Shown here piece after piece: positions 9,399 through 41,097 of a stretch of DNA of 64,000 bases. The notes beneath the pieces were generated by a model, which was given only the letters and a program-made list of their open reading frames with translations, ran no database searches and was not told the DNA's origin. Source of the DNA: Auanema rhodensis (lineage: Eukaryota; Animalia; Nematoda); the NCBI GenBank assembly GCA_964057225.1, contig OZ059896.1, positions 12,834,001 to 12,898,000 on the forward strand, in the 5' to 3' direction. A program made the translations under genes and the position numbers. Position 1 is the stretch's first letter; each line of letters begins with the position of its first letter.

Positions 9399-9399
9399 A

Positions 9400-10610: not shown

Positions 10611-10620
10611 GGTTCCGTGG
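10611..10620 (+). pseudogene. 5' 10 nt of a second tRNA-Gln copy, cut inside the A box
   Basis: GGTTCCGTGG with about 50 bp of conserved upstream flank, followed by unrelated sequence. Confidence 0.85.
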
Positions 10621-17408: not shown

Positions 17409-17906
17409 TTTTGCTCTAAATATATATGTTCTTCTACTTTCTTTGTTAAGTGGGTACAACTGAACACTCTACTTGCTTTTTCGAGAGAAACGTTTACAGA
17501 TATATCGATTAACAATCTGATCACAAGAAATTACATTTTGAATTATACATTAATGAAAATTTAGAAAAATCAAAGTAGAGAATATAATGAGATAAGACAG
17601 AAATGTCTCTAGAGCAATCAATCTGGGTAGGAGTAAAAAACGTGTTATGTCAGCCTCATTTTCTAAACGTGGCTTGTTTGGGCATCGGTTACTGGAATAG
17701 CTCGCACATGTGCAGCATGTGCTTGCCGATTTGACAGTGAAAAAATAAATATACCGAAAAAAACTAAAAGAAACAATAAACTAGTATAAGGTTTTCTTCT
17801 GCTTGCTAGTGTAGTAAATATTCATCTTCGAAGACTCAAAGTTCCAGACAAAAACTAAAGAGAATCTGTGAAACATATATCGGCCAAAACAAAATACAAA
17901 AGTTGA

Positions 17907-18248: not shown

Positions 18249-18310
18249 ACTGTAATCTGTCACAAGAGAATTGTCATATATGAGATTCAATCATCCCTCA
18301 ACGCACCCAT

Positions 18311-21063: not shown

Positions 21064-22542
21064 TTAAGACTGACAAATGCTGATCAGCGTTTTATACGCC
21101 AAAACATTGGCTACTTATCACGCAAATTGAATGATCCTATAGAGGTTGATATCATCTTGGGCATTGCTGAGGTCCATGCGAGTACCATCTATGATGAACC
21201 AATTATGCAATTGCCAAGCTGCAATCTAGTCGCTCATCCCACTTTTTTTGGATATACACTATCGGGAAGGTATGACTTAGATACCAACAACCCCACATAC
21301 GCGGATAGTGTAATCGCATGCACAACAAAAATACATGACGATGTTGACAAAAATGTGGAATCCATGGAATCTATTGGGATTCGAGACAACATATCAATCG
21401 AAGAAGAAGAACAAGGGGTACTGAGCCAGTTCAATGAACAAGTAAAAAAGACATGTGAAGGCGTACACGTATCCTTTCTGTGGAAAGAAAACAAACATGC
21501 ACTGGCCGATAACTACAGTATCGCATTAGCAAGACTGCGACAACAATTCAATCACGCAAAGAGCAATCCCGAGAATACAATGAAATTTTTTAACAACAAT
21601 TGGAGAGTAATATCATTGAAGACGCACCAATTCACCCTGATAGCTCCCCAACTTATTATATACCGCATCAAGCGGTAGTTAAGTTGTCGAGTAACACTAC
21701 CGAAGTACGTATAGTACTTGATGCATCCTCTCATCGATGAGGAAAATTATCATTGAATGATGTTATACATCAGGGTCCCACAATTTTACTAAATCTATCA
21801 GGTCTATTGTTACGGTTTCAGGTTTGGAAAATACATAATCATCAGTGACGTTGAGAAGGCCTTTCACTTGGTACATCATAATAACACCGAAAAATACGCC
21901 ACTCGATTTCTTTGGCTTCACGATCTTTCGCTACCACCTGAACAAGATAATATACGGGTGTTGCGATTTAACAGAGTACCATTCGGAGTCAATGCTTCTC
22001 CATTCCTCCTAGCTGGCGCAATTCAATTTGGGCTGAAATCCCATTCAGACACACAACTTACGTTGTATCATAGATAATCTTTATGTAGACAATCTCATTC
22101 TCACCTTTGATGAGACCTCACAAGGAGTAATATTATACAGAAAGTGTAAGTCTGCGTTCAACGATATGAAGATGAACTTGAGAGAATTTTGTACTATGAC
22201 ACGAACACTATGAAATGCATTCCAAAACAGGACAAAGCAGAGAACGTACTGCAAAAAGTTTTGGGAGTTTATTGGGACTCACACCAAGACACATTTAGTC
22301 TTGCACTTCAAATGGATTATACAGGTAACAGTATAACCAAGCGACTTGTACTCAGTAGAGCACACAAAACATTTGATCCAGTAGGATGGTTGAGTCCTTT
22401 AATCTTATTATCAAGACACTTCTTACAAAAACTGTGGGCACTCCGTTACGGGATGAACCAATCTCTCCCGACCTTCAACGTGAATGGAAACAGATATGCA
22501 GTTCGGTTCATGAATACCGATACCACGTACCTCGAAACATGT
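20800..22542 (+). pseudogene. pol: BEL 2 pol (protease-RT), fragmented
   Basis: DIILG, TFFGYTLSG, YYIPHQAV, RVPFG, YVDN, KVLGVYW motifs spread across frames. Confidence 0.85.
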
Positions 22543-23439
22543 ACCTACTACAACACGTTTTGGTGTATGAGACGTGAATAATATATTATTAGGTGAATCC
22601 AAGCGGCCTCCTTCTATGAAATAAGAGCGCATTTTCACTGATGTCATGGGGTAGTGTATTCGATCCTTTGCGAGTTTATCTTCTATAGCCATAGCTAATC
22701 CAGCGTTCAGATCAAACTCTTGAATAAGCAAGTGCACATCGTTGATATCTATTTTCAGGTTTGGAAACTCCTCCTTCATTGCAGCATCCTTGCTTTCATT
22801 ATTCCAGCCTAGAGTGTCAATTAAAAAGTTATCACGGTTTGGATATGCAGTTAGCTCCATTTTTGAATAGTTTACAATCAGTCGCTCTTGATTAAATAGG
22901 TCGATACTGACGGGAGCAGCCATCTCACACAATATGCCATTTTTTACAAGCGTTTGACGCGTTCTAAATCCAGCACTGGATGCATTATCTATATATCTAT
23001 CAGCAAAATAGCCTGATATGGCAAGTTTGCTCTCTTTAACATCGTTGCTATACATTAAAATATTCTCGATATATGTTTTATAGGCATGATTCACGGTAGA
23101 GTCATACACGCTAACATCGCCAATTTTCAAATGATACGAATGTATTAAACTGGCAGCAAATCGTTGATATGGTGCAAAAACAAGGTTGTCTGGTACTGGA
23201 TCACCGTTTGTGGTTACAATTTTAAATTTTACATTCAACCAACATCTTCTCAGATTGAGGAATGATTTGGAATTTTGAGCTATAACAAATTCCCATGGTC
23301 CTTGAGGAAGAAAAGTATTTTTCAAAGGGACTTGTACAGTACGAGTGGATTCAACACCTAATGCCGACGCAGGTATATCACCATAGTTGATATTAGGTAA
23401 AAGGGCTTGTGCTGATTTTGAATCTATCAATTTAGCCAT
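22543..23439 (-). pseudogene. MCP: Maverick major capsid protein (double jelly-roll), C-terminally truncated
   Basis: GPWEFVI..SFLNLRRCWLNVKFKI, HAYKTYIENILMY, DLFNQERLI, IHYPM, PKRVVVG; then switches to antisense BEL 2 sequence. Confidence 0.88.
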
Positions 23440-23892
23440 TTAAATGTGAAACGACCGCTCACGAGTGATGCACAACCGCTTATGAGGTTTTGTGGTTTTG
23501 CGTCGTCGCCGTTTGCCCAAGCCGGTAAGATCTCGTATAGCTTGCCGGCCGGCTGTTTTAAGAGTTTCCTTGATATTATCGCCTTTCAGCACCCCATTGA
23601 CAATTTCATTACCAGTTTCCAGCAACTGTCCGCCAAGAGGTGAATTTACAACTGGACTATTGCTTACAGCACTGGATAAGGCGTTTCTTCCGGCATTGAT
23701 GAGATTTTGGGCTATAGGTGATTGAATGATGCGTGGTAGAAATGATGCCAAAGTTGCCAAAATACCACCCAAACCATGACCCCTCTGCATTCCACGTTGA
23801 AACATCATTCCGCTAAATGGGGCGCCACCCATTTGCTGATTTAAAAGTGTTGTCCATTGAATAGAGTTGACATCCAAAAGGAGGTGCGGCAT
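23440..23892 (-). CDS. Maverick core-like protein with adenain-type cleavage motifs
   Basis: QQMGG, QRGHGLGG, LTGLG followed by KRRRRK; stop codon abuts the MCP start. Confidence 0.75.
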   Translation of the reverse strand: MPHLLLDVNSIQWTTLLNQQMGGAPFSGMMFQRGMQRGHGLGGILATLASFLPRIIQSPIAQNLINAGRNALSSAVSNSPVVNSPLGGQLLETGNEIVNGVLKGDNIKETLKTAGRQAIRDLTGLGKRRRRKTTKPHKRLCITRERSFHI

Positions 23893-23943
23893 ATCGAACC
23901 GCACGCGCGCAATACAAAAGTTACACTAGATCATTCTACTAAA

Positions 23944-24398
23944 ATGTATTCGTCTGAAATAGTATCACTATTGCAATCTGTTCCCAGCACTCGGAAACTG
24001 TTCCTCGGTGTATATAGCGCTGATACTCTACCCAAAACGCGTCGAAAAAACTTTGCACTTGTCGTAAATACTGACACACATGATAAGCCAGGCACACATT
24101 GGCAGGTCATCTTTGTCCGTAACAAGCAAGCCTATTTTTTCTGTAGCTTGGGATATAAAATGAACAAGTACATCAAAATTATCTGGCCAAATATAAAAAG
24201 GTAAAAATTAATACTTGCAAACCACAACGTTTAATTGAATACACTTGTGGTGGCTATGTGGTATTTGTAATACTAATGTTGTCGGCTGGTAATTCATTTG
24301 AAAGCATTTGTTCATTTTTTAAACTATTGAAAAATGATGATGTCTTTATTAAAGCGTTTATGCATAAAGTATTCGACTATAAATTGGCTACTATATAA
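23944..24398 (+). pseudogene. PRO: Maverick adenain-like cysteine protease (frameshift near 24178)
   Basis: FLGVYSADTLP, VVNTD..PGTHW, YFFCSLG, then in the shifted frame PQ..YTCGGY and NDD. Confidence 0.88.
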
Positions 24399-24651
24399 GA
24401 AATTTGTCATTAATAACCTGCTACATTACGTGGTCAGTTATGAATATTCCTTGTCACTGTGAATTATGTGTCAAATACACGTTGGAGCAATCTAAACCAG
24501 CGCCTTTATACAGGAGAATATTGAAATGTATTTGAGTGCCATTTATTAAAGGTATAGCATTGGGATTGGGCTTTTGTACAACACTAGTCATATTATTGCT
24601 CATTATATAAAAGTGGGTTGATGGCGTGTGGTCGTTTTTCATTTTCCTCTA

Positions 24652-25116
24652 ATGGAACTTTTATGTAACAAATATTGTGGTACATGCAAGGAAATATTTT
24701 CTTCAACCAAGCATTTTAGTGATCACGTTTTGAAAAGGCATGCAGGGATTCAACCCGTATGTAACAATTATATCAGCAATGCTGACTTTATTCAAAAATA
24801 TGGACATTTGGATGGTGTTCGTAGACGTTTGTGCCCTCATTGTAGTGAAACTTTTGGAACAAGATTCAATTGTGAGCGTCATATTCGGCGTATTCATAAT
24901 AATAATGGAACGAATGGTGAAGATGGTGATGGAAATGATACCAGCAAACCCTTTGAAAAAGCTGAGGAGTTTGTACATTCAACCCAATCAAAAAGATGCC
25001 GCAGCAATAGTGACGGAGAACATTCACAACACGAGCCGAGCGACAAACAAAACTGCCCTAAACTATCTTTTAAACCTTCGAAAATAAAAATGTGGTATTG
25101 TATAACTGTTGAATAA
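24652..25116 (+). CDS. two-finger C2H2 zinc-finger protein (Maverick cargo)
   Basis: CGTC-x12-H-x4-H and CPHC-x12-H-x4-H; TATATAAAAG at 24604; AATAAA overlapping the stop. Confidence 0.75.
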   Translation: MELLCNKYCGTCKEIFSSTKHFSDHVLKRHAGIQPVCNNYISNADFIQKYGHLDGVRRRLCPHCSETFGTRFNCERHIRRIHNNNGTNGEDGDGNDTSKPFEKAEEFVHSTQSKRCRSNSDGEHSQHEPSDKQNCPKLSFKPSKIKMWYCITVE

Positions 25117-25121
25117 AACGT

Positions 25122-25757
25122 TTATTTCATATTTTTAACATGCAATGTAACAACTGTAGAACCATAATTAAATTGCATAGGACGACCAAATTCATCTAAA
25201 ATTTCAATACGTATGGTATCGAGTGTTTGTCTAGTGATTGGTACATAACGAATAGGATTAAATGTTTTGGCAATCATTTTACCAAATTCAGTAGGAGGTG
25301 GTACAGGTAAACATGCAAGTAAATTAGCTTTCACATTACCAAGAATGGAATATTCTACAATATCACAATATATATACATTGTATTAATGTTATTTGAAAA
25401 ATCAATGGGACGCCTAGCTATTATTGTATCGTTGATGTTTTTATTTTCAAAACCAAGAAAATATGCAAAATCATCACCAAGCGTTGCATTCATTAATACT
25501 CGCTTGCTTGTTACAAACTCTATGCGCTGCAATGTTTTGTTAAACTGAAATGTGGCGTCTGCGAGCATTTCCTCCACTAGCTTAGCCTCAGCCTGGCGAT
25601 TATTATACCATTTTTTTACATCTTCATCTTTATCTATTAAACTTTTTATACGTGCTTCTTCCTCAGCTCCAAGAGGCTTTGTATTGTTGGCGATAAATGA
25701 TTCTCTTCCAGCATTGATTCCGCGTATTATTTCATCACCATTTGCATAGTTGCCTTT
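25122..25757 (-). pseudogene. mCP: Maverick minor capsid (penton) protein, C-terminal part
   Basis: LAYFLGF-like FAYFLGF, MYIYCDIV, YVPI, IRIEILDEFG, VVTLH; joins in frame with 35635-35856 once the Gypsy insertion is removed. Confidence 0.88.
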
Positions 25758-25761
25758 AGGC

Positions 25762-26142
25762 CGTTACATATCGTTTCTTCCCGTCTTTTCATGGTCGGAA
25801 GATATATGTACTTCTACCTTGTTCCTTAGGTAGGCAGACCCGAACGCCCTGATTTCCTTATTAAGACAAATACTTAAAGAGAAAAGGATTCATTATCAGA
25901 TAACAAGAAAATACAATATAAGAATTACATTAAGAAAGAATATAAAGATATATAATAAAGTATTAAATAGAGAATATATATAGATGATATAGAGATGAGA
26001 CTCACATGACTATAAGACAACCTATCTGGGTTAGACCAGAAGCAAGAGTGCCATGTGTGTCCCATGTTGTAGGCGGGGCTTGTTCAGGCTCCCGCTATTT
26101 GAATAGCGCGCACATGTTCACCATGTGCTAGCAGATGTGACA
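25762..26142 (-). repeat. 3' LTR of element B
   Basis: Matches 35254-35634 with one mismatch seen. Confidence 0.97.
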
Positions 26143-26158
26143 TCCCCCCACCTTAAAA
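26143..26158 (-). promoter_or_regulatory. polypurine tract (AAGGTGGGGGGA)
   Basis: Purine run directly preceding the 3' LTR TG on the minus strand. Confidence 0.85.
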
Positions 26159-26740
26159 GTTGAACGTCCTCGTTCAAAAACAAAATTAATTAATTCACTT
26201 TTTAAGATAGTTGGATGTTGGAAAAAAAATCATGGTGTAGTCGATAAAAAAAAATGTATACAATACGATTTGAAAGTTTAGCTATTGTCTCTTCAAGTTT
26301 GTTGAATTTAAAATGTAGTATCGAGTAGATTCTATTCCATTCACTTGAGTAGTGAAATGCTTGCAAACGAGAGCTTTGCTTCTAAACCATTCGACTGTGA
26401 TATAGTCGTTCATTTTCTTGAGTTGTACAGGTACGGTGTTACCCTGAGAATAGGTCGAGCCCGTTCTGTACAAAAAAATGAAAACTCGTTTAACCCGTAT
26501 GACTAATGTCCATAAGGTGAATACAAGTAATGATTAAGCATAAAAAAATAGCAAGATTCACAAGAGAATGTTGAAAAAAAAAATCTACTCAATGAGAGTT
26601 GGAGTAATAAAACAAAACCTTGTAAAACAATAGCAGACTTCTCAGAGAAAATCAATCAACAACAAAGAAGTGTTACAATCAGAAATGGCACAAAATAAAA
26701 AAAAAATTCAACAGTTTGATTTTGTTAAAAAAAACTACCT

Positions 26741-28017
26741 TCAAGAAATTGTGATAACCGGAATAGATGTTGTCCGTTGGTAAGGTTTGACGAAATCCTT
26801 GTGTACTCTTCTGCTTTTTCCTTTATCTGTTTGAACCACGACGAAAGATCTTTGAACTGCTGTAACTAAATAAGGCCCTTCGAATGAAGGTGTTAGTTTG
26901 TTTCGAGTAGAATTCACTTTTATCATAACTAAGTCATTAATCTGAATTTCTTTATTTTGTGTTCTATTTCGTGTATTGTACCGTTGTTCATTCTTCTTTG
27001 TGCATGTTTCAATTCTATCTTTTACTATATTAGATGTGCTTTCATTTTGTATTAGCGATCTATTGACAAAATCTTCTGTAGGATTGGCTGGTTCTTCAGT
27101 TTGAAGATTATTTCCAGGCAATTGATGGTCAATAGTAAGTCTTGCATCCCGACCAAATAATACAACATATGGACTAATAGATGTTGATGAGTTTGGTAAC
27201 GTATTGATCGCAAACATAACTTTGGGTAGGTGTATATCCCAGTTAGTTTGTTGTTCATTCACGAATGAAGAGAGAGCTTCTTCCAAAGTTCTATGAAGTC
27301 TCTCAACTTGTCCATTAGCATTTTTATAATATGGTAGCGTAGTAGTGTGTTTAATTCCAAATTGTTTACACATAGCTTGAAATTCAGATGACAAAAAGCT
27401 ACTACCATTATCGGTTATCATACTCATTGGTGGTCCATATATGAAAACAAATCTAATTACAAACGCTTTTGTGATTTCAGTAGCCGTTTGTGTTATTAAT
27501 GGGCAAGTTGTTCCCCATTTACTAAAAGCATCTTGAATACTCAAGATGTATCGATGTCCATCATTAGTGCGAGGTAAAGGACCTAGTATATCTACATGAA
27601 TACGATCAAATGGCTTTTCGGGTATAACAAATCTTCCCATAGGTTGAATATACGATTGGTGTGGGTTAGATTTCCTACTTGCACATTTTGTACAACGATT
27701 AATAAATTCAGTTATTTGTGGAACCATATTAGTCCAAAAGAATCGTCGTCGAATCGCATCAGTAGTTTTATTTATACCTAGGTGTGCACCAATTTTGGAA
27801 TCTTCGTGAAAAAATTTGATGACAACATCAGTTATTTTGTCGTTTCGAGGCAAAATAATAGATGGTTTTGAATAATTTTTCGCTTGTTTTGCATGTAATA
27901 TGCTTTCTCGTTCTTCATACCGGTCTGATATATTAGCCGGACAGTTATCATTATTAATTTAAGAAAGTGCTTCGCGAATCCAGGGAACTCCAGCTTGAAC
28001 TTTCCGTATTTCTTCAC
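26741..28017 (-). pseudogene. int: Gypsy integrase (frameshifted from RT/RH)
   Basis: H..AHLG..C..C, HVDILGP, ITDNGS, VERLHRTL, FEGPY. Confidence 0.92.
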
Positions 28018-29380
28018 AATTTAGTTGGTCAATAGAAGAAATAGTTGTGATATGAGCAATAAAAGCATCAACAGGTTTTACTTTGTCCTTTGGTTTAGTA
28101 GGACGACTGTCATTTGCTTCGTTTCCTATATACCTGGAGAGAGCATCACAGACACTGTTTAATTTGCCAGGACGATATTCAATCTTCATGTTGAAATCTT
28201 GTATCATTAGTTGATACTTGGCTAATCTACCTATGAGATCTTTACGCGACATTAAACTGGTTGATGGTCGGTGATCTGTGATAACTGTGGTAGGTACTCC
28301 TAATACATAGGTACGGAATTGTTGAAGAGCAAAGACTAAACCGAGTGCTTCAACTTCAATAGGAGGATATTTCCGTTCCGCTGGAGTCAACTTTCTACTA
28401 GCGAACGCAACGATCATACTGCCATCACTTTCTATAACAAAAGGTTGGTCTGCTTTAGGAGGTTTCAGTACAGGGGCAGTACACAGTAATGTTTTTAAAG
28501 TTTTAAATGCGTCTGCATGTTCCGATTTCCACTCAAAAGGAGTATCCTTATGTGTTAACTTATACAATGGCTTATCTATTCCGGCATAGTTTTGAATAAA
28601 CCGTCGAAAATAGTTAGTCATACCTAGAAAGGATCTGACAGCCGTAACTGTACTTGGATTTGGAAATTCGGAAACAGCCTGTATCTTAGCAGGATCTGGT
28701 TTAACACCATTTCTACCTATTACAAAACCCAAAAACTTTACTTCAGTGGCTGCAAAGCAACATTTAGATAACTTAATTTTCAACCCTAGTTCAGTGACCT
28801 TTTTCAGCACTTCTTGTATATCTCTTAAATGTTCTTCAGCTGAGTTCGAAATTATTAGCAAATCACCTAGATATACAAACAGTTTGCATCTAACAAGTGA
28901 TTGCAAGTATCGTACTGCGGATTGAAAAGTGTGTGGCGCTCCACACAATCCCATAGGCATTCGGCAATACTGATAGGTACCTGATGGAGTGGTAAAAGCA
29001 GTTAGGTATCTATCTGAGCGTTTCAACGGTATTTGGAAGAAACCAGAAATGAGATCAAAATTCGAAAAGAACTGAGCTCCAGCCGCTAAGTCTATGATAT
29101 CAGGAATGTGTGGGATGCTGTATGTTTGTTTCTTAGTAACACTATTCAATGCTCTAAAGTCAGTAGCGAACCGGAAAGAATTATCTTTCTTTTTAACAAG
29201 AACAACCGGACTAGTGAAAGTAGCCGTCGAATTTTCGATTATACCTTGCGACAACATTTCTTTCACTTGCCGTTCTACTTCTTCTTGCTTACCCAATGGT
29301 ACTCTGTAAGATCTACTTTTTGGAAAATCCATATCAGATCTTATAGGAATGGCATGTTCAACTGGTCCGCAAAAGAGGTT
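27959..29380 (-). pseudogene. pol: Gypsy reverse transcriptase / RNase H, inactivated
   Basis: SPVVLVKKKD, DFRALN, DLISGFFQI, MPMGL; catalytic YxDD reads YLGD; RNase H lacks the GAVL strand after ESDGS. Confidence 0.92.
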
Positions 29381-29650
29381 CAGGTGGAACTTAATCGTTC
29401 ATAATTTCTTTAGATGCTATAAGTCCTGAACCAATGTGGTCATTTTTATTAATTTTAATTGGCTTTGAAGAATTGTTTGATACTACCATAGTAATAGGAA
29501 AAGGTCCTATGGCGGCATCTGAAATTGAGATAGGACCTGTGCTAGATTTTAAAAGAGCATATTGATCAAAATCTAATTCTGGTCCTGTTTGCAAAGATAT
29601 GTGGGAGGTACTATGTGGTGGAACTGTTACTGTGGACAAACTTATGATAT

Positions 29651-30496
29651 TTACTGTTTTAGTTGTGGTTTTATATGCAAAACAACCAGGTTTACTAAGG
29701 TTGTTTCCATATTACCAACAATCAACTTTCCTTTACATAGTTTTAATGTAGTAAATATCTCTCTTTCTTCCAACGTACGCATAAAATCAGTACCAAGTAA
29801 CATTTGTCCTGGACAGTCATTGTCTTCAGATATTAAAAATTCGTGTTCCACTTGGTAACCTGCTATACCCACATCTAACTTGCATTTTCCCACAAAGCGA
29901 AACTCTGATCCATTTGCAGTGGATGCAGATCTAGAATATTTTGTAAAATATTGTCTTCCAATATATGCCAATGTGGAAAACGGAATATATGAGACCGTAG
30001 CTCCAGAATCCCATAATTCTAACAGTCCTCTACCTTCAATGTCAATATGAACAAACGGTAACATGTGTCCATCTTTCTTTGTTGTTGTGTGACATACAAA
30101 AGGTATGGCTAAAAGAATGTAAGTTATGATGGTGGGAAAATAGCTCCGCATCAATTCATCACTAACTGTTTCATGAATCTCATCTCCCTCAAGTGGTGGA
30201 GCTGTTGGGCTCAACATGATATGGTTTATTTTTAACATAGAAGTAGGGGAGAGATAACATTTTATAGTGAAATATAATGCTATCATTAGACATAATATCA
30301 GAGTTATACAACCGATGGTAATGAGTGTTCGTTCAATTGAACCTATACAAAAGTCAATGAACAGATCTCAATTGGAGAAAACAATTTTCCTGGCATCTCT
30401 TATAAGTTTACTTCCTTTGAAGATGAAAGAGGAAATTTGAGGCCAATCATGTGAACGAGAAATTACGCGGAGAAGATCATGGTGAGGTGAAGTAGA
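29651..30496 (-). pseudogene. env transmembrane anchor, cytoplasmic tail (PTAPP) and aspartic protease, in frame with gag-env
   Basis: Same frame as ORF 30497-34102 across stops at 30497-30499 and 30368-30370; TLITIGCITLILCLMIALYFTI, LWDSGATVSYI, MLLGTDFM. Confidence 0.85.
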
Positions 30497-33400
30497 TTAA
30501 CTATAACCATAAGTTAATCCAATAGATAAGGCTAAGGATTTTTCAGTCGAATTTTCAAACAAATTCCGCCCTGTTAATCGAAGTTTACTTTCTGAATGAA
30601 TACTATCTACTTTATGTGTGTCACCTTTATAATCTCTCCATGTTCCATTTTCATACCAAATCTCTGTCTCTTTGTGTTCACAATTGATCTCATGTCCTTC
30701 AGTGCTCAAATCGTAGCTATCGATAGGAGCAAAGAATAATTGTTTATCGTGTGTTAAAACAGGGGTCTCTGCATAACATTTATCATTGTAAGAATGATTA
30801 CGATAAATGAAATGTGGTTCTATTTCCTGACAAGTTGTTATTTTTAAAACATTTCTTCCAACAAATCGGGCAACGATATCATCCCGCTGAAGCATAGCTC
30901 GTACTCCTATTGTAGGATGTATACGTAATATAGCTTGCCAGCTTTTTACAGTTTCCATTTGAGATTTACAGATGATATGAAACTGTTGATGAAATTCGTC
31001 AATTATGGAGAGACGCGCTTTCTCAAACCCATAATTCAACTTATTATCTATTATCGTTTTAGTTTTATGCTCTGATTTGTGGAGAACATTGTCATATACT
31101 TCTGCTACATACAACTCTCGACCTCTCTCGTACGCATTAGGGGTAGGAGTTGTTAAACTACGAATTGTAGTTTTGGTGGCAGTTATTGGGGTTACAGTAG
31201 TATGCTGTACCATATTTTTATCAGTTGTGATTTGAGTTTTAACCCAACTTATGAATTCTAAAACTACTGTTTTATTGAATTTGGGATTTTCCTGTGGGTA
31301 TTCGATGGACTGTGGAGGAAATCCATAATATGCTGTACTATTCTTTGTATAAAGGTTGTGATAGTCAGGCAGCTTAGATATAATTGCTAAATCTTGCTCT
31401 TGGTTGTTTCCAACAGTAGCATCAGCTTTTTGTTGTCGACTGACTTGCATGTCACAAGATATTTGTTCTTTTCCCAATTGTTGTTGGATCATGAATAACA
31501 TGCCTTGAGCAGTTGCAATAATTTCAGATTGATTCATATTTCCACTGCGTGGTAATATAGATGGATATAAGGCTCTTACCAACTGTTCGATTGATGGAAC
31601 TGTTTGTGTACCATCAAGAATTGTGGCTTGATATACTACTGCGTGAGCCATTCCTCGAAAGAAGTCTTCTATGGATGTTGTAGATTTCATCAACGATCTT
31701 TTTAACCGAGGAACTTCTATACGACGAGCTACTTGAGTGATAAGATCATCCAATTTCATGCTAATCATCTGTCTAGTAGCCAGTTTAATTTCCTCTATAC
31801 CCATACATTGTAAAATCAAAAGATTGGGATCTTTGAAATTATTAGACTTTGCCCAGTTAGTTATATGATCTTTTGTCAATCCTAAACTAACAATTGTGTC
31901 AATGAACAGTGGATTATCTATCGCGAATTGGAGCAAACTTTCATAAGATGATGTAGCTGCATATCTCATATATTTTGCGTAAAACTTAGTGATAGATGCA
32001 GATCCAAAAATGAAAGTAGGTCTTAGAAAGGGAAACGCATATGGTTGGGATTTCGCATTAACAAAAAGATAATCATCACTGAAAGAGCGATGTTTTTGAG
32101 GTAATACATTACGTTTATTTCTGCGTCTATCAGCATTAAGCAAAGTATTGGAAAGATCAAGCAAATTATAAACACGGGGATATGCTGTGAATCGGATAAT
32201 TGCCTCAGAAGATGATTCAAAAACAGCGAATTCGAAACAAGATTGAACGTGAGCGGATGTGGAATGATTTTGGAGAACAAAAGCGCTTTCAATAGAGTGA
32301 ACTAGAAGAATATGATCACCCAACATGGCGGAGAAGGGGCCAAGTTTTTGATAGTGACAGACAACTGATGGGATAGGTGGTTGCCAGATAACTGCACCTT
32401 CACCAGTTGCACAAAACCCTTCATTTCCTTTACAATTATCAGTATTTATAAATAAATCTGATACAATGTGATCTTCTTTCAATCTAGTTATTATCCCTCG
32501 CTTCAATACAAATTGTTCAATTTCTACACATTCTTCAGTGGACCACGAGCGAGTTGGATTATGCTCGTTTAATGGTGTTTCAAAAACTGAATGCAGTTTG
32601 GCATTCATGATTTTATCATTCCACATACGATTTCTATGTGCTCGAACACAATCTTTTTTATCTACTGTTTCAAAATGAGAGAATGTGGTGTTACGATCTC
32701 TCAAAAACATGAAATCTCTCACACAACTTTTATACTTTTTCACATAGCATTTCCATGCTTCCCATGACTCTATCTCAGCCTTTGGTAGATATATTTCTAC
32801 CTCAACACTGTGAGCCTTTTCGATTTCTGCCTTATGGCAGCCTGTGACTACAGGAGGTGTTACTAATATACCCCCTTCAGATTGAGCGCAAATCTGATAT
32901 TTTGCCGACCCAAAGGAAAGGCATGAGAGTGCCAATAAAGTCAGGCACAACGTGACCGGTGGCATGAATGGGGTCGCTACGTTGTATACCCTTGAGTTAC
33001 CATTCCCATTGGCTGATGGTCTTTGTCTTCTTGGGGAACTAGGCCTAGGGTTCCAAGACGAGCTATTGGCATTTCTGCCATTCGCAAATGGGCGGTTTCC
33101 CGGGTTAGGACGCCTATTCATATTCCCGTTCTGCGAGTTATTATTATTATAACGTACGGCAGAAGGTCGCTCTCTCTCTCGCTCATAATCATTAGAGCCA
33201 TTATTGTGCTGAGTCCAGTTATTATTTTTTTTATAATTTTTATAATTTTTATTATTATTATTATTCCTACTTCTTTCTCTTTGTTCACTAAAGCTTAATT
33301 TATGCTGTAAAGCATTTATGAGCTCCTTCAAGGTGCTGGTGTCTTCATTTCTTTTCATGAAGCTATTTCGAACGTCTTCTTCAAACCTAGCTAATTTCTT

Positions 33401-34102
33401 AGCTTGTTCATAAGTGACGGGGTTTTTAGTTAAAACCGCAATACCCAGTTCCTCTTTTAAACCATTTAAAAATGCCGTTTTCAACATTGGTTCCCGCTCG
33501 GGATCCATTGGTGACATTATGGTGCTTGCCATTCTCTCCAATTCCATACTAAAATCAAGAACAGATTTATCTCCTTGTTGTACTCGATGAATAAGCGCTA
33601 TGGTGAAATTTTTATCTGTTTTAGGCGCTAAAAGCTCAGTGAGCTGATCCATCAAAACAATCCATGGGCCATTAGTTCTTATGCCACTAGGAATACTATT
33701 ATACAAGGAGAGAGCTGTTTCGTTTGATTCCAAAAGAAGAGGTAAAATTAATAGTCTCTCAGGTAAGCTTAGAATCATAAGATTAAAAAATCTATTTAAA
33801 GATTCAACAAAAGAACGAAAGCTACGAGAGCCGTCATACCTGGGACAGAGATAGCAATTTAAAATAGTTGCCATATTTCTAGAGGGTGGAGCAACATTAG
33901 AATTAGGAGATGGAGAGGTAGGAGTCATTTTTCTTTCAAAAGCTTTAGTTATAGCAGCGGCCCACCGACTTGGTGATCTATTTCGTACTGTAGTAGGTGC
34001 CCGAGGTGTTTCCTCAGTGATGGCCTTTCTGCTTTTACTTCTCGTTCTAATTGTTAGAGAAGAAGAGTGAGAAGAAGAAGAGGAATCACCTTCTTCTCTC
34101 AA
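30497..34102 (-). CDS. gag-env: Gag fused through an internal signal peptide to a class III (herpes gB/chuvirus G-like) envelope ectodomain
   Basis: Gag: CPRYDG, QGDKSVLDFSMELERMA, AFLNGL. Signal VTLCLTLLALSCLSFGSA. Cys-rich ectodomain with furin-like RRRNKR and RLKR, and IC..WQAILRIHPT.GVRA.L.RDDIVARFVG..C..CY..TPV. The true start codon is uncertain (frame open from 34249, first ATG near 33929). Confidence 0.82.
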   Translation of the reverse strand: MREEGDSSSSSHSSSLTIRTRSKSRKAITEETPRAPTTVRNRSPSRWAAAITKAFERKMTPTSPSPNSNVAPPSRNMATILNCYLCPRYDGSRSFRSFVESLNRFFNLMILSLPERLLILPLLLESNETALSLYNSIPSGIRTNGPWIVLMDQLTELLAPKTDKNFTIALIHRVQQGDKSVLDFSMELERMASTIMSPMDPEREPMLKTAFLNGLKEELGIAVLTKNPVTYEQAKKLARFEEDVRNSFMKRNEDTSTLKELINALQHKLSFSEQRERSRNNNNNKNYKNYKKNNNWTQHNNGSNDYERERERPSAVRYNNNNSQNGNMNRRPNPGNRPFANGRNANSSSWNPRPSSPRRQRPSANGNGNSRVYNVATPFMPPVTLCLTLLALSCLSFGSAKYQICAQSEGGILVTPPVVTGCHKAEIEKAHSVEVEIYLPKAEIESWEAWKCYVKKYKSCVRDFMFLRDRNTTFSHFETVDKKDCVRAHRNRMWNDKIMNAKLHSVFETPLNEHNPTRSWSTEECVEIEQFVLKRGIITRLKEDHIVSDLFINTDNCKGNEGFCATGEGAVIWQPPIPSVVCHYQKLGPFSAMLGDHILLVHSIESAFVLQNHSTSAHVQSCFEFAVFESSSEAIIRFTAYPRVYNLLDLSNTLLNADRRRNKRNVLPQKHRSFSDDYLFVNAKSQPYAFPFLRPTFIFGSASITKFYAKYMRYAATSSYESLLQFAIDNPLFIDTIVSLGLTKDHITNWAKSNNFKDPNLLILQCMGIEEIKLATRQMISMKLDDLITQVARRIEVPRLKRSLMKSTTSIEDFFRGMAHAVVYQATILDGTQTVPSIEQLVRALYPSILPRSGNMNQSEIIATAQGMLFMIQQQLGKEQISCDMQVSRQQKADATVGNNQEQDLAIISKLPDYHNLYTKNSTAYYGFPPQSIEYPQENPKFNKTVVLEFISWVKTQITTDKNMVQHTTVTPITATKTTIRSLTTPTPNAYERGRELYVAEVYDNVLHKSEHKTKTIIDNKLNYGFEKARLSIIDEFHQQFHIICKSQMETVKSWQAILRIHPTIGVRAMLQRDDIVARFVGRNVLKITTCQEIEPHFIYRNHSYNDKCYAETPVLTHDKQLFFAPIDSYDLSTEGHEINCEHKETEIWYENGTWRDYKGDTHKVDSIHSESKLRLTGRNLFENSTEKSLALSIGLTYGYS

Positions 34103-35240
34103 AAATTCAAAAGGAGAGAGGTAGGTGGATGGAGTATTTAAGTTTTTAGAATTAAATTCAAAAACTTGGCGTACCTCTGGTGATCCTTGTTCCTGATCTT
34201 TGCTTTCCTCGCTGATGTCCGAGTCCGACAGGGTGGCTGGTGAATAAAGTTAGATGAATATAAGAGCGCGTACTGGAAGCAACTAGACTCCAGTAAAAAC
34301 GTTTGTGACAATGGCGTCTGATGAAGGAGGATCGTTGAAGCTTCAAGCTCCGCCTCCAGCCATGTGTCACGACACCAGATGTTAGCGCTTATGGTAAACA
34401 ACCATTGACCGTCTGTCGTGATATTTGAATATTATAATCACTAATGTCAGCTTAGAGACAAATAAGGAATCACAGATGGTGCCTTAAGCCTGTTTGAAAA
34501 CTTTTGAATTTTAACAGCTGGTATTGACTACACATGCCGAACAGCTGGTACGCGTGGGCCAACTATTTGAATGTGAGTAAGCTTAAAGTAAACAAAAATG
34601 TCTCATCTCGTATATTAAGTTCAATTTTATAAAGTTTATTAAGATTTGTAGAAATAATTTCAAAATAAATCTTAATTAAGATAATTTTTAATTTAATTTC
34701 AAAAGATTGAGAAGGTAATTTAAGATTGATATAGGAATTTAAATTTGGTAATCTGTCAATAATATAGGAAAAAGGAAACGTTGGCAGACGTAGAGTGGAC
34801 TTGGGTGGGTAGGAATTTAAATATTCTTATTATCTCTGAACTAATAAGAAAAGAGTTAACAGGAGTCGAACCCTGATGAACCCTTGGATGTGAATCAAAA
34901 TCAAAAAGTCGTAAATTAAATTATCCCAACAGCCTCCAGCTTCCAAACAACTCAGCTAAAAAGTGAGCTCTGTTGCCACACTGGACATTCACATCATAAA
35001 GTAATGAATCAAAATAGCACGCGTGCATAACAAAAAGGTAACGCTCGTCAAAACTATTGTCTGATAGTTTCCCCAAACGTCTCAGACACCTCCCAGTTTT
35101 CGTTGAGCGGAGGAGAAGTGGTAGCCAAAATAATTTTTGGGGAAATCATGGTGCACGGCTCGGTTACTCCTCACTGTTGGGCAATTAAGTCCAAAAGTCT
35201 CGTAAACTTGCTGTCAATAAATTAACAGTAAAGTGAGCAA

Positions 35241-35253
35241 GGTGGAACCTCCA
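35241..35253 (-). promoter_or_regulatory. primer binding site, tRNA-Gln (TGGAGGTTCCACC)
   Basis: Abuts the 5' LTR. Confidence 0.88.
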
Positions 35254-35634
35254 CGTTACATATCGTTTCTTCCCGTCTTTTCATGGTCGGAAGATATATG
35301 TACTTCTACCTTGTTCCTTAGGTAGGCAGACCCGAACGCCCTGATTTCCTTATTAAGACAAATACTTAAAGAGAAAAGGATTCATTATCAGATAACAAGA
35401 AAATACAATATAAGAATTACATTAAGAAAGAATATAAAGATATATAATAAAGTATTAAATAGAGTATATATATAGATGATATAGAGATGAGACTCACATG
35501 ACTATAAGACAACCTATCTGGGTTAGACCAGAAGCAAGAGTGCCATGTGTGTCCCATGTTGTAGGCGGGGCTTGTTCAGGCTCCCGCTATTTGAATAGCG
35601 CGCACATGTTCACCATGTGCTAGCAGATGTGACA
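35254..35634 (-). repeat. 5' LTR of element B (381 bp)
   Basis: TGTCACA...TGTAACG; direct repeat of 25762-26142. Confidence 0.97.
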
Positions 35635-35856
35635 AGGCAAGTGTAGAATAAATTTTCTATTGGAAAAACGTAGTGTATAAGATAAATCTTTTTGAACATT
35701 TAATATAGAACAAGGAAAAATGATGTCTGTCAGCCCAATGCAATATCTATTATTGCGTAGCCTTAGTGTTTCAGGTAATCTGGTAAGAAACACTGATGAT
35801 GTATTACTTTTTTCAGAATCAACTGATGATGGAAGAGTAATGTAAAAATCGTCCAT
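35635..35856 (-). pseudogene. mCP: Maverick minor capsid protein, N-terminal part
   Basis: MDDFYITLPS..NTSS.F.TRLP..L..YCIGLTDIIFP, the typical Polinton penton start. Confidence 0.88.
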
Positions 35857-35935
35857 GACAAACCACCACTTGATACGTGTACACTATTGCAAATGAAATC
35901 ATTTGCATTTTAGGTACATTTACGAGTGGTTGATT

Positions 35936-36581
35936 ATGGTTTTCAGCTTCAAACTACCCAGTCAGACAACTGTAATAGGTGCTACCCAATGCGTTAAAAC
36001 AACTCTCATGAAGCACATATGCGAAAATACTGAAAAGTTTTTCAACGTCCCCATTGAGAATATTCTGGTTCAGTCAATGTGGGTCATCGTCAGGTGTACC
36101 AATAAATGATGAGCGTTTAATAATTATTCAAGGGCCTCCTGATCCTGATTTGATAAAAGAACAAAAGGGAGTAAATACTATACTAGTGCTGGATGATTTG
36201 ATGAACTTTTTTTCATCGAATAAAGCAGCAAAGGAATTACTCAACAACATTTTTACAGTGTGGGCACATCACTGGAATTTGGCAGTGTTTAATCTTGTGC
36301 AAACGGCATTTCAACTGGACAGGACCAGTCGAATCAATAGTATATATATAATACTGATGAAAAGTCATTCAGATATATTACAAATACGTAATTGTCTGCA
36401 GCAATTATTTGGGCCACGTTTCAAAAATGCTCTAGAAGCGTATGATGATGCAATGTCTACTCCCTATAGTCATTTACTGATTGACAATCATCCTTTAACA
36501 AGTGAGAAGCAGCGTATACTATCTGATATAACAGCGGAGAACCCTATTGTTTATGTTGCCAGAAATGTGTTTAGTGTTTAA
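35936..36581 (+). pseudogene. ATP: Maverick A32-like packaging ATPase (frameshift near 36064)
   Basis: Degenerate Walker A GATQCVKTT, Walker B ILVLDDLM, HHWN..NLVQ, SRINS.YI, PYSHLLID.HP. Confidence 0.9.
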
Positions 36582-36593
36582 AGTGCTTGTTCA

Positions 36594-36902
36594 ATGAGTG
36601 GTCGTATTTTGTCAAATTTCAACTTTTTGTCTTCTTGCGCCAAAACTCCTTGTTCTGTTTCCTCATTTTCTTTTGCACAAATTGAAATTATTGTTGAAAT
36701 TGTATTTAATATTGTGAAAAATAATAATTTTCTTTTAACTAACAAGGAATATAAAACCCTCTTGCCCATATCTTCATTATTACGTCAAATAGCTTTGATA
36801 CGCACACCGGAAAAGGCTAAATCATTATTGGCAACGCTTTCACACAAACAATTGAAAACAATAGTTACATGTGGTATCGCCTATTTTGGTTTTAAATCAT
36901 GA
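36594..36902 (+). CDS. Maverick small hypothetical protein
   Basis: Tightly packed ATG ORF between the ATPase and the next gene; IVEIVFNIVK resembles conserved small Polinton ORFs. Confidence 0.6.
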   Translation: MSGRILSNFNFLSSCAKTPCSVSSFSFAQIEIIVEIVFNIVKNNNFLLTNKEYKTLLPISSLLRQIALIRTPEKAKSLLATLSHKQLKTIVTCGIAYFGFKS

Positions 36903-37615
36903 AGCTCAACCATAAGTATCGACTAATTCCTGTCGACGAGGAAACAATTAATATAGACAAGTTTGATGCAGAGCTCAAGCTTTTACGAGAAAATAGAGCT
37001 ATACCCGACTATAAAAAGGCTGAACTATACGAAGACTTGATTGCTCGTCTCAAAAACTATAGAGAAAGTATAGATGCGCCTATATCAGTACAAGTGGAAA
37101 ATGCTGATCCACCTCTATTGCCAGAATACAAGTTGCCAAGAAAGTATAACAATTTGTGGGAGAGATTTCCAGAGGTGCGCACAAACAAGAGTAATCAACT
37201 TGTGATTAATAATGAGGCTGTACCAAACACGAATATTACAAAAATTTTAGATTTTGTATTGGATAAAACAAAAACGGAGCCCAATGGATTTTCAGTCTTG
37301 TCAAAGTTTTTAGCCAGTAAAGGCGTACCTAGTTCTAACAAGAAACAAACTAGAAGAGAGTCGGCTGACAATGATTCAGTTGACGTTGTAGCTAGAGCTG
37401 AACCGGCTGTTACAGACTTGGACTCTACTATATTACCTAGAACGCCTCGTCATTGTAAAGCTGTTATTCGATATTCACCATCACCGGTTCGTACACTCAA
37501 AAGTAAAAGGTCAAAGACTTTTGATACTGCCGCCGAATCATATTACACACCACGGGAAGGAGACTCACAGAATGGCCAAGGTCGTAAAAGGTTCTACATT
37601 AGATTATGGAAATGA
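36899..37615 (+). CDS. Maverick hypothetical protein (238 aa)
   Basis: KYRLIP start, NQLVINNEAVPNTNI, C-terminal QNGQG protease-site-like motif; overlaps both neighbours. Confidence 0.7.
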   Translation: MKLNHKYRLIPVDEETINIDKFDAELKLLRENRAIPDYKKAELYEDLIARLKNYRESIDAPISVQVENADPPLLPEYKLPRKYNNLWERFPEVRTNKSNQLVINNEAVPNTNITKILDFVLDKTKTEPNGFSVLSKFLASKGVPSSNKKQTRRESADNDSVDVVARAEPAVTDLDSTILPRTPRHCKAVIRYSPSPVRTLKSKRSKTFDTAAESYYTPREGDSQNGQGRKRFYIRLWK

Positions 37616-38639
37616 TATTTTGGCGAGCATTTATTACGATATAAAACACCCAGCTTCATATACATCAGCCAAGAATTTATCATCGCAAGCACGAAAACAT
37701 GGCATTTCAAACGTACAAGTTGATGATTTTTTGCAAGATTCTGAAACTTTTACACGGCATAAACCAACCAGAATGCGTATGCAGACTAAAAAGACTAGAG
37801 GATGTGGTCGATTTCTAACAGTGCAAGCAGATTTGGTTGATATGCAAAAATATAAAAAATTAAACGACGGCTATGCTTACATGTTGACCATGATTGATGT
37901 TTATACACGCATGTTATATGTTAGGCCTTTGAAAACTAAAGGTGGTATAGAGGTTGCTAGTGCATTTGAAAGTTTATTCAAGAATTTTAAACCAATTCAG
38001 TTGATTACTGATAATGGCACAGAGTTTTATAATAGTCATTGTGAAAAACTATTCAAAAAGTTTGCCATACTGCACGGATCTACAAGTTGACCACAAAAGG
38101 CTGCAATGGTGGAGCGAGCAAATAGAACTTTAAAAACACGCATGATTAAATATCTCTATTACAAGAATAATCATCGATGGATTGATATCCTAGATGATTT
38201 GGTTGAAGGAATAAACAAATCTTATAATCGGTCAATTAAAATGCGGCCCATTGATGTTAAAGCAAATATATTCATTGAAGAATATGCATCAGCTGTTAAA
38301 AGCCGCTTTAAAATTGGTGATACTGTTCGCATAAGCAAAAATAGGCGTACTTTTGAAAAAAGCTACGAGTCTGGATATACAATGGAGCTATTCACAATTG
38401 ATGAGGTTGTAACCGGAAACCCAACCGTGTATAAACTTGTAGATTATAATGGTGAACGTATAAAAGGAATATTCTACGAACCTGAACTTGTCTTGGCTAC
38501 TAATAAAAGTAACAAGTACTATATAGAAAAAGTTTTAAAAGAGCGTACTCGAAGCGGTAAACGTCAAGTATTTGTAAAATGGAGTGGATATCCCGACAAC
38601 TTTGATGAATGGATAGATGCAGAAAATTTAAATGTATAA
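37572..38639 (+). pseudogene. INT: Maverick retroviral-like integrase with C-terminal chromodomain (one in-frame TGA at 38088-38090)
   Basis: YYD..HPASY, QADLVDM, IDVYTR, TDNGTEF, VERANRTLK, FKIGDTVRI, IEKVLK..VKWSGYP..FDEWI. Confidence 0.93.
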
Positions 38640-38935
38640 TTTTTCAATGTTATAAACAATTGTAATTATAATAAATGATTTATTTGATATATCGAATAAT
38701 GTAACAATAAAAAACCAGCAAAATACAAACAACAATTCAACCTGCAAAAAAAAAAAATGTAGACTATTCAAATTTTCAAATTCTTACCAGTTGGTTGATC
38801 ATTCGTTCTTAATTGATGAGCCATTGATGGATATTTGCAAGAGCTGGAAAAAAAAATGTTACGGCTGAGAATATAAAAATGCCACATAACAAAACAAGAA
38901 TAAAACGCCAATTGTACTATTTGTGCTTGTTGTAG

Positions 38936-39521
38936 TCAAAATGAAGGATCAAAGCGGATAAACATGTTCAGGTTGAGTGCTTCAGGACTTAGTTCAAAGT
39001 AGAATACATTCTGCTTATAACCAAAAGTCTTTACAGTAGCCTCATCTGCATATATAACAATATAGCCCATATTGTTCAACAATTGCTTGCACGTCATGGT
39101 GTTATAAGAGCGCATCTAAAAAAATTATAAAATTGAAAATAAATGAATATGCAAGCTTACATTAATAGAAAAGTTTTCGGGCTTATAGTGACGAAACTCC
39201 TTCAAAAGACCCAACGCATCATTCCTTCCTCTACACTTTATACAGAGGTTGAAACAGTGATACTCGTCTATAACCTGCAATGATTCCCTACAAGTTTTGC
39301 AGAGACAAATTGGTCTCATTAGTACACTCCTTGGTGGAGTGCTCTCTCTCAGAATCTCCATCTGCTTTATTGGTGAATCTAAATTAAAGATTTAAAAAAT
39401 ACAAGTTAAGGTTCATACCAAAACTTGTGAAATTTGGTGCTGGTGTGGGTGGTCGTGGTATTTCAGGTTCAGGCGATTTGCGCACAACATTTGTCACATC
39501 AGCAAGTACAGCACGCTTCAT
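38936..39521 (-). CDS. predicted 3-exon, 166-aa Maverick accessory protein with D-box, CDK sites and a Cys/His cluster
   Basis: Exons 39521-39419, 39378-39161, 39115-38936; introns of 40 and 45 nt (GTATGA..TTTAG, GTAAGC..TTTTAG) keep the frame open. Confidence 0.7.
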
Positions 39522-40329
39522 TTCCGCTAAAGATCCAACTTTCTAAAATATAAGGCAAACTTGCAGAGAGGAGCAGTCTATGGCGATTGGCAAAGAGTGG
39601 CAGGAGATGGTGAAACGTCGGATTCTCGGATAGTTGGCAGAGCTGAAATGTAAATGTAGCAAAATTGCCAACCTTTTATACAAAGATTTTTGTAAAGTAC
39701 AACCCATTGTGTTACAATCAAGTTTGCTGATGAAATTTTTTTATTAATTAGATTTTACAGCATATTTATGCAGATATACTCATCTCGTCGACAGTTGCCA
39801 GCCGTTGGCGCACTCTGAACCTGTAAACAATCTGCATATTAATTAGTTTTTACATCTCTTTAAACATTATTGTTTACCGTTTGTGCCATAAACAACAGCC
39901 ATCTCTGTAAAACATTTAGGCTTTTTAAACTTTGCTTAATAGCTCATATATTATTCATAGTATACTTTTACACCCATATTGTAGCACAAAAGATATGACT
40001 GCCAACGTTTTATATGTAAAAATATTTCATTCTTGAATATTTAATAATGATTATATTACGAAAGTAAAACTTTTGAAATGTTAAAATGTTTATACTATAT
40101 TTAAACCCCCACAGTGCAGTTATTAGTGTTTATTAATCCTCAATATGCGTGGCAACTGTTTGTTAATCTTATTGTATTTACCTTCAATGTGTGCTCTATT
40201 TAGTTATTGTATTGTTATATTAGTAAAATAAAGTTTAAAACTAATCTTTTATTATAATTTGAAACCTTTACTTGTTAGAATAAATATAATTAATAACAAT
40301 TTGTAATTTCAAAAATTAATAATTTAATG

Positions 40330-40473
40330 TCGTTCTTATCGAATTAACCTTCGATATGTGTTCCATTAAATTTTGGTATTTCATATCGTTCTTATCGAAT
40401 TAACCTTCGATATGTGTTCCATTAAATTTTGGTATTTCATATCGTTCTTATCGAATTAACTTTCGATAAGAAC
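40330..40473. repeat. 56-bp tandem repeat (about 2.5 copies) ending in a 12-bp hairpin
   Basis: TCGTTCTTATCGAATTAAC at 40330, 40386 and 40442; GTTCTTATCGAA-6nt-TTCGATAAGAAC at 40444-40473. Confidence 0.85.
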
Positions 40474-40944
40474 CATTGAATTCCATTGAATTACCCATAA
40501 CAAGTACAGTGAACAAAATTATCTACATGCAAAAATTTTATTGATCTTTAAAAATAAAAACAGTAAAAAAACACAATATTATAGCATAATAAACAAAATA
40601 AGTAAACAAAATAAGTAAACAAACATAATTAATAAATATAATAAATAAATAAAGTAATAAAATTTTAAAACAAATTAATATATTTAAAATTTAAATATAA
40701 TTTATATATATAAAGGTTAAATATAATTTGAATATAATTTATGAATATAAAATTTGAATATAATTTAAATATTTAAAATTTAGATTTTTTTTTTCACTTA
40801 ATATATTTAAAAATTAATTCAAAATATATAATTATATATATACATTTGAAAAAGCATATTTAAACTTGATTTTAAAAAAAAATTTAAATCATGCTAGAAA
40901 TCATGATTTTTAAATTTAAAAAAGGAGAATTCATGAACCATGAT

Positions 40945-41097
40945 CCCAAAATATGATTTTAACAGCTGACGCTCAAAAATATGTTTTTGACAGCTGACGC
41001 GCCCCAAAAGTATGTTTTTAGCAGCTGACGCCCCCAAAAGTATGTTTTTGACAGCTGTTTGGGGGCGTGGTTAGTAAATTTTGCACGGCTCTCTACT
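40945..41097 (-). repeat. Maverick terminal region: four subterminal repeats of about 30 bp and the AGTAGAGAG end
   Basis: AAAA(G)TATG.TTTT..CAGCTG(ACGC) x4, then GGGGGCGTGG, ending CTCTCTACT at 41097. Confidence 0.82.

Follow-up and report, generated by a model that had tools for sequence, protein, structure and literature searches.

A transcribed, spliced orphan gene in the cargo slot of a decayed Maverick encodes a D-box-type motif

Can a small gene stranded at the end of a broken virus-like element encode a protein whose lifetime is set by the division cycle of its host? The question is raised by a locus of the nematode Auanema rhodensis, for which a preliminary description of the DNA had proposed an intact, spliced Maverick gene whose product bears an APC/C destruction box (D-box) and CDK sites. 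In nematode Mavericks, the region between the integrase and the terminal inverted repeat is described as a cargo region of 2–5 kb that bears introns and is high in GC, and the cargo moves among nematode species, a selfish toxin having originated from it (Widen et al., 10.1101/2022.07.12.499685, in excerpt). We analysed a 64,000-nucleotide stretch of contig OZ059896.1 (positions 12,834,001 to 12,898,000, forward strand), hereafter the window, to which all coordinates refer.

Results

The gene lies between the integrase and the likely end of a decayed Maverick

A decayed Maverick/Polinton occupies ~22430 to 41097 of the window with its right part, which comprises genes for the major capsid, a pX-like protein, a protease, a C2H2 protein, the minor capsid, an ATPase and an integrase with chromodomain, as well as two unnamed ORFs. 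Its main features are as follows.

22423..23925, minus strand: pX-like and major capsid genes, the major capsid gene interrupted at ~22430 by a BEL/Pao element
23845..24395, plus strand: adenain-like protease, split across two frames
35623..35883, minus strand: 5′ part of the minor capsid gene, with the 3′ part at 25122-25763, interrupted by a Gypsy element (LTRs at 25762-26142 and 35254-35634)
35897..36581, plus strand: packaging ATPase, split across two frames
37392..38639, plus strand: Maverick integrase (rve and chromodomain), convergent with the cargo gene, with an in-frame stop at 38088-38090
41089..41097, plus strand: CTCTCTACT, the likely right-hand terminus of the Maverick, directly next to a 176-bp satellite

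We take CTCTCTACT at 41089-41097 to be the Maverick terminal motif; its partner terminal inverted repeat was not found within the window, and no polymerase was recognised among the window's ORFs. In 99 integrase-bearing Polinton-like loci (19 viral loci and the best 80 of 348 metagenome loci), tblastn at E < 1e-5 found relatives of the ATPase (31), major capsid (28), protease (31) and minor capsid (49). For the integrase, 179 relatives passed a limit of E 1e-10; among the 120 listed, identity reached 50%. From the integrase to the likely end, the slot at 38640-41097 measures 2.46 kb and holds the cargo gene; GC in the three 1-kb bins of 38001-41000 is 32, 36 and 20%, versus 35–38% across the core genes.

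Several other features of the window deserve mention in their own right. Between the protease and the minor capsid gene lies a C2H2 zinc-finger ORF (24622-25113, plus strand), possibly spliced, whose weak Pfam matches fall below the cut-off and which has no relative in the 99 loci. Short tandem repeats of 56 and 30 bp occupy 40322-41057, just inside the likely Maverick end, and 131 copies of the 176-bp satellite adjoin that end and fill 41098-64000. The interrupting Gypsy element (25762-35634, minus strand) is a young Ty3/Gypsy with 381-bp LTRs that are 99.7% alike and a 4-bp target duplication. One ORF, at 30497-34249 (minus strand), combines gag with a stretch resembling a signal peptide and an ectodomain weakly similar to glycoprotein B (Pfam E 0.00026, under the cut-off), and this envelope-like part sits between gag and protease/pol, not 3′ of pol. 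A second, broken element (1-2086, minus strand) has by eye the same gag-then-envelope-like layout, Pfam matching gag only. Two divergently oriented BEL/Pao elements, at 3530-9460 (minus strand) and 18284-22581 (plus strand), flank an array at 10010-17699 of about three tandem 1,944-bp units, 99.9% alike and lying within 392-nt inverted arms. Each unit contains a 153-aa frame that has no Pfam match and by eye is like a Mutator transposase exon. The right BEL/Pao element, the one that interrupts the Maverick major capsid gene, contains an 807-bp internal duplication (19453-21063).

RNA contigs show a transcribed and spliced gene

Spliced together, three exons on the minus strand (39521-39419, 39378-39161 and 39115-38936) give a frame of 166 codons uninterrupted by a stop. 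The two introns predicted for this frame, both GT..AG, are 40 and 45 nt long and have 18–20% GC, whereas the exons have 37–47% GC. The features of the gene, all on the minus strand, are listed here in the direction of transcription.

39674..39680, minus strand: TATA-like box TATAAAA, from sequence, with a presumed promoter role
39522..39721, minus strand: 5′ leader under RNA contigs, holding TTTCAG (39648-39643) and TTTTAG (39548-39543), both read through
39419..39521, minus strand: coding exon 1, Pro-rich, with ATG at 39521 (sequence and RNA contigs)
39489..39515, minus strand: D-box-like RAVLADVTN, residues 3-11 (sequence, published consensus)
39379..39418, minus strand: intron 1, 40 nt, GT..AG (joint in X12, loose end in X13)
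39161..39378, minus strand: exon 2 of the 166-aa frame, seen in RNA as 39378-39292 and 39248-39161
39365..39376, minus strand: full CDK site SPIK, residues 36-39 (sequence motif)
39326..39343, minus strand: STPPRS, residues 47-52, with the full CDK site TPPR (48) and the core of a Cdc4/SEL-10 phosphodegron
39233..39307, minus strand: Cys/His cluster, residues 59-83, predicted from spacing to be a zinc site of the 166-aa form
39249..39291, minus strand: unpredicted 43-nt intron within the coding frame, GT..TTTCAA, 40% GC (joints in X12 and X13)
39238..39240, minus strand: stop codon of the 66-aa form (translation after removal of the 43 nt)
39116..39160, minus strand: intron, 45 nt, GT..AG (joints in X12, X13 and X14)
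38936..39115, minus strand: final coding exon of the 166-aa frame, which ends in the stop 38938-38936 (sequence and RNA contigs)
38742..38787, minus strand: 3′ UTR intron, 46 nt, GT..AG (joint in X12)
38679..38684, minus strand: AATAAA poly(A) signal, just beyond the last RNA-covered base (38696) and just short of the end of the convergent integrase

We aligned four public runs to this region: X12, X13 and X14, which belong to one study and which we had guessed to be RNA, and X16, an RNA-Seq metagenome from another study. Four splice joints were seen in the contigs, and such joints identify X12, X13 and X14 as spliced RNA. Cover in all four runs is limited to 38696-39721, with X16 covering only 38837-38982, where there is no joint, and with one X14 contig reaching upstream past the TATAAAA, to 39721. 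None of the four runs covers 35900-38692 (ATPase and integrase), a weak negative given that the runs had been found with the cargo gene. The junction at 39116-39160 is present in three of the four runs (X12, X13 and X14); the one at 39379-39418 is bridged by X12, and X13 carries a 15-letter loose end that equals the start of exon 2. The three-exon model is thus correct as sequence and both of its predicted introns are spliced in RNA contigs, the junction support coming from one study, at contig depth 3–7, and from a copy ~2% off the window's letters. Apart from the 43-nt piece, the introns are 40–46 nt long and AT-rich, with ends of the TTTTAG/TTGCAG type, features that point to a nematode host. 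SL trans-splicing at the TTTTAG of the leader, which had also been suggested, is unsupported, since X12 and X13 read straight across it; contigs cross both candidate acceptors, at 39543 and at the TTTCAG, and no trans-splicing was seen at 39543.

The cargo gene is therefore real, transcribed and spliced. The RNA copy differs from the window at ~2% of positions (8 of 437 letters in the longest contig), and given this difference it may represent an allele or another copy. Separately, 11 DNA runs (four organism labels, three studies) contain 0.39–0.59 of the words of 38800-39800, with which close relatives, relabelled samples and transfer are all compatible.

A 43-nt splice truncates the frame in the RNA sampled

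Both contigs that span 39249-39291 (X12 and X13) skip these 43 nt, with no ambiguous letters and no compensating gap. The removal loses C64, H75 and C76, shifts the frame and brings in the stop at 39240-39238, leaving a 66-aa form that retains the D-box-type motif and both CDK sites and from which the zinc motif is gone. On this point the RNA goes against the preliminary description, which had spoken of an intact product: what X12 and X13 show is the truncated 66-aa frame, not 166 aa. No contig of the retained (166-aa) form was seen, although contigs cannot prove its absence.

The 43-nt piece has 40% GC, versus 18–22% in the other three introns. Moreover, the long frame stays open for 103 codons through this piece and the next junction, for which base composition gives a chance of 0.0007, and the two other frames over the same stretch contain 8 and 11 stops. 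In C. elegans, TTTCAA acceptors are usable and non-AG acceptors are favoured in the germline (PMC4484395, in excerpt). Because of this GC content, the long open frame and the known use of TTTCAA, we read the intron as a likely cryptic one that arose within coding sequence, its letters GT..TTTCAA being read from the window, and the gene is a likely case of a non-AG acceptor in natural use. A genomic deletion in place of the intron is unlikely because the piece starts with GT, ends with TTTCAA and has a length similar to that of the other introns.

The product originally selected was presumably that of the 166-aa frame, including a small alpha/beta domain that would bind zinc. The 43-nt splice would then strip off the effector domain and leave only a 66-aa timer peptide, or an RNA open to nonsense-mediated decay, so that full-length protein from the copy sampled as RNA may be scarce or absent. 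We give little credence to a more elaborate version, in which a regulated, possibly germline-type non-AG splice would switch an APC/C-directed timer between a zinc-domain effector lost at mitotic exit and a 66-aa minimal APC/C decoy consisting of just a high-affinity D-box and CDK sites.

The N terminus carries a D-box-type motif and two CDK sites

The extended D-box consensus is given as RxxLx[D/E][hydrophobic]xN[N/S], and the high-affinity 'super' D-box of Hsl1 as RAALSDITN (PMC6927175 and PMC12401543, respectively, both in excerpt). RAVLADVTN, at residues 3-11, satisfies consensus positions 1-9 (position 10 is V, not N or S) and equals the quoted Hsl1 box at 6 of 9 positions. In 200,000 shuffles of the 166-aa sequence, an extended D-box arose with a frequency of 0.0015, at least two full CDK sites with 0.018 and both together with 0.00003, for a motif set that was partly picked after the sequence had been seen. 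The D-box-type motif that had been proposed is thus borne out, and so are SPIK and TPPR (residues 36 and 48) as full CDK sites above shuffle expectation.

RAVLADVTN is the sole extended D-box match in the six-frame translation of the window (82,190 codons), and none occurs in the 120 integrases listed. Across the 99 related loci, three matches in 1,105,798 codons translate into ~0.2 expected per window; the argument therefore depends on where the motif lies, near the start (residues 3-11) of a real gene. One of these three, RASLADVQN, lies just upstream of the zinc-binding region in a Polinton-like integrase ORF (locus L092, 1995, plus strand) and is probably a chance match. No RNA differences inside the D-box are listed in X12 or X13, in copies that are ~2% diverged. 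As a motif, then, the D-box of the cargo protein is better than chance, and from its sequence a degron role is plausible.

The surroundings of the motif are those of a candidate degron region. Lysines K2, K15 and K39 lie near it, 10 of residues 1-56 are Pro, and this composition suggests that residues 1-56 are disordered. STPPRS equals the core of the SEL-10/Cdc4 degron without its two hydrophobic positions (shuffle 0.018; consensus from 10.1101/378398, in excerpt). KEN, ABBA, PIP and LxCxE were absent from the 166-aa translation in our motif scan. For ABBA the scan used a pattern that we assumed, and we also assumed the STP within STPPRS to be a Polo-box-like motif (shuffle 0.11). A possible separase-type ExExxR at residues 18-23 was rejected for its low information. 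As to the zinc-binding motif proposed earlier, Cys/His residues do cluster in the 166-aa frame (at 59, 61, 64, 75, 76, 80 and 83) and include a paired CxxC at residues 61-64 and 80-83; the cluster is cut out of the RNA forms observed in X12 and X13, and the paired CxxC is lost with it.

The intact frame is expected by chance

The gene had also been singled out for staying open while most core genes carry lesions. The core lesions are confirmed, but openness is what chance predicts: given 3–5 small lesions in the ~4,492 coding bases of the core genes, the probability that a frame of 501 nt has none is 0.57–0.72. We rejected on this basis the argument that intactness among broken genes means selection. 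Of five scorable coding differences between RNA and window, three are synonymous and two non-synonymous (neutral P 0.12, not significant), a count that excludes 2–5 further differences near the ends of contig pieces.

These results bear on the possibility that the gene is decaying cargo without a current role, its D-box a chance match or a captured host remnant (for instance a cyclin-like N terminus) and its cryptic splice a sign of decay. The chance-expected intactness, the lack of a significant purifying signal, the frameshift in the RNA observed and the ~0.2 extended D-box matches expected per window all fit this explanation, as does the only named Atlas look-alike of exon 1 (a Cyclin_N cluster at 0.79), which is a lead only. 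Decay accounts less well for a real gene that carries a D-box at residues 3-11 and two full CDK sites as well (joint shuffle frequency 0.00003), and for a promoter, splice sites and poly(A) signal that are working or present while the adjacent core genes are without RNA cover. On balance we consider it unlikely, although it is the rival that we take most seriously.

The cargo protein has no detectable relatives

Searches for homologues of the three exons found none. Exons 2 and 3 had no match among 1.84 billion protein representatives (50% identity); neither of two longer candidate proteins was homologous to exon 2; exon 2 was found in none of 399 metagenome stretches; and tblastn with the three exons against the 99 integrase-bearing loci gave 0 of 99 (best E 1.3). 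Pfam and PHROGs contained no family under E 0.03, the best being phrog_5101, which matched the Pro-rich part of exon 1 at E 0.03, and the Cys spacing matches no Pfam family. GCN5, from a PDB sequence search (best E 0.86), was rejected as chance. In the Atlas, exon 2 fell near unnamed small bacterial and viral clusters (0.93–0.94, recognition below threshold, a lead only) and exon 1 near unnamed plant clusters (0.90–0.93) in addition to the Cyclin_N cluster, all below the reliability marks. A single-sequence AlphaFold prediction, in which exon 1 was not included, had a pLDDT of 35 throughout and is unreliable.

One origin for the folded part, suggested by the look of the C-terminal part, was tested with a profile of Vsr-like domains; the motif filter kept 68 of 79 loci, and 57 sequences were left once duplicates had been removed. 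This profile scored 5.6 bits against the 166-aa protein, as high as or higher than all but 2 of 3,000 shuffles scoring below it and none of 361 real control slices reaching it, and VSR domains are known in some nematode pPolBs (PMC10748475, in excerpt), which would allow the folded part to derive from the Vsr-like (PD-(D/E)xK) nuclease domain of Polinton polymerases, catalytically changed and placed under a cell-cycle degron. The idea is post hoc, however, having been chosen by eye, and the match spans only the 32 residues 106-137 (one helix-Gly-strand unit); hhalign gave a probability of 1.2%, global hhalign produced no alignment, with a score equalled by 16 of 200 shuffles, and the DG and HG motifs invariant in the Vsr-like alignment are missing from the 166-aa translation. 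We regard a Vsr origin as very improbable. The gene is a new orphan cargo gene in an already known slot, split by introns and overlooked both by ORF callers and by 1.84 billion protein representatives.

Discussion

Our leading reading, which we hold tentatively and on the strength of sequence motifs, is that the gene is orphan cargo of a broken Maverick whose predicted protein is a host APC/C substrate, destroyed at mitotic or meiotic exit via its N-terminal D-box. Host RNA polymerase II would transcribe the gene from its own TATA promoter, independently of the core genes, and residues 1-56 would be disordered and act as a timer. Within them, the D-box would serve as the docking site for Cdc20/Cdh1 and APC10, with lysines 2, 15 and 39 as ubiquitin acceptors; phosphorylation by CDK at S36 and T48 would modulate turnover or provide a back-up for it, possibly by way of SEL-10. 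The preliminary description went further in coupling Maverick activity to host mitosis or meiosis. For this copy such coupling is inapplicable in cis, given the stop in the integrase, the cut capsid genes, the absence of a recognised polymerase from the window and the lack of observed core RNA; because its core genes are broken, it cannot time its own transposition.

The same description left a choice between a cell-cycle-timed regulator and an APC/C decoy. Timed turnover is a fair reading of a D-box and CDK sites that exceed shuffles, whereas a decoy would have to work without KEN and ABBA, and it is their absence that makes a timed substrate the likelier of the two. We nevertheless considered that the 166-aa protein or the 66-aa form might serve as a competitive D-box decoy that damps the APC/C and thereby keeps cells in a state favourable to DNA replication, an effect that several viruses reach by different routes. 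The likeness to the high-affinity Hsl1 box (PMC12401543, in excerpt) would suit such a role, as would the makeup of the 66-aa form, which is almost purely D-box and CDK sites, and APC/C inhibitors have evolved convergently in viruses, with raised nucleotide pools as a benefit (PMC13524340, in excerpt). Against it, Acm1 employs three degrons at once (PMC12401543, in excerpt) where the cargo protein lacks KEN and ABBA, the three lysines near the D-box are substrate-like, and the RNA level is apparently low, contig depth (3–7) being a poor measure of it. A decoy thus appears improbable to us, and we continue with the timed APC/C substrate.

How does such a gene compare with known systems? It is like the wasp proteases and krma kinases carried as Maverick cargo in its position between integrase and end, its 2.46-kb slot, its spliceosomal introns and the lack of core RNA, Widen et al. 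having likewise seen no Maverick core-gene transcription (10.1101/2022.07.12.499685, in excerpt). It differs from that cargo in being smaller (166 or 66 aa, versus 430 aa for Cwal-KRMA-1), in occupying a slot that is not GC-rich and in having no detectable relative, the last distinction being drawn from description; cell-cycle motifs are unmentioned for wasp and krma in the excerpted text.

With the APC/C substrates (cyclins, securin and Hsl1) the predicted protein shares an extended D-box near the N terminus, a Pro/Ser-rich setting and nearby lysines and CDK sites. Unlike them it has no cyclin box, no KEN and no sequence relative, is encoded by a virus-like element, and its degradation is a prediction from sequence. 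The pseudosubstrate inhibitors Acm1 and Emi1 are similarly small proteins with a strong D-box, from which the cargo protein differs in its single degron, KEN and ABBA being absent. In the long form a Cys-rich region comes after the D-box, an architecture that is loosely Emi1-like, but the protein has no Emi1-type tail, which we counted against a decoy.

Two viral comparisons are also instructive. Like the 'Oncoid' genes of adintoviruses and Polintons, the cargo gene encodes a small accessory protein with short cell-cycle motifs beside paired CxxC; unlike them it has a D-box and no LxCxE and sits beside the integrase, Oncoids having LxCxE for Rb and lying typically upstream of PolB (Starrett et al., PMC8502044, in excerpt). 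If the decoy reading held, the protein would join the small viral proteins that target the APC/C: Orf virus PACR, CAV apoptin, adenovirus E4orf4, HPV E2 and HCMV UL21a/UL97 are described as mimicking APC11, binding APC1, or sequestering or inactivating coactivators (PMC13524340, in excerpt). We found no sequence likeness to these proteins, for which the excerpted text does not mention a D-box. In the open-access literature, as far as it is available in excerpt, we found no report of a D-box or an APC/C link in a Maverick/Polinton; Jeong et al. mention uncharacterized ORFs without describing them, and the term 'cell cycle' is absent from the excerpted text (PMC10748475).

If the D-box is incidental, the gene is one more orphan in a known slot. 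If instead the cargo is wired to the APC/C, Mavericks would engage the host division cycle directly, which would offer a handle on when they act in the germline. And were the splice-switched timer true, no earlier D-box mimic from a Polinton-class element would be on record in the literature searched, and the gene would be raw material for a selfish cell-cycle toxin.
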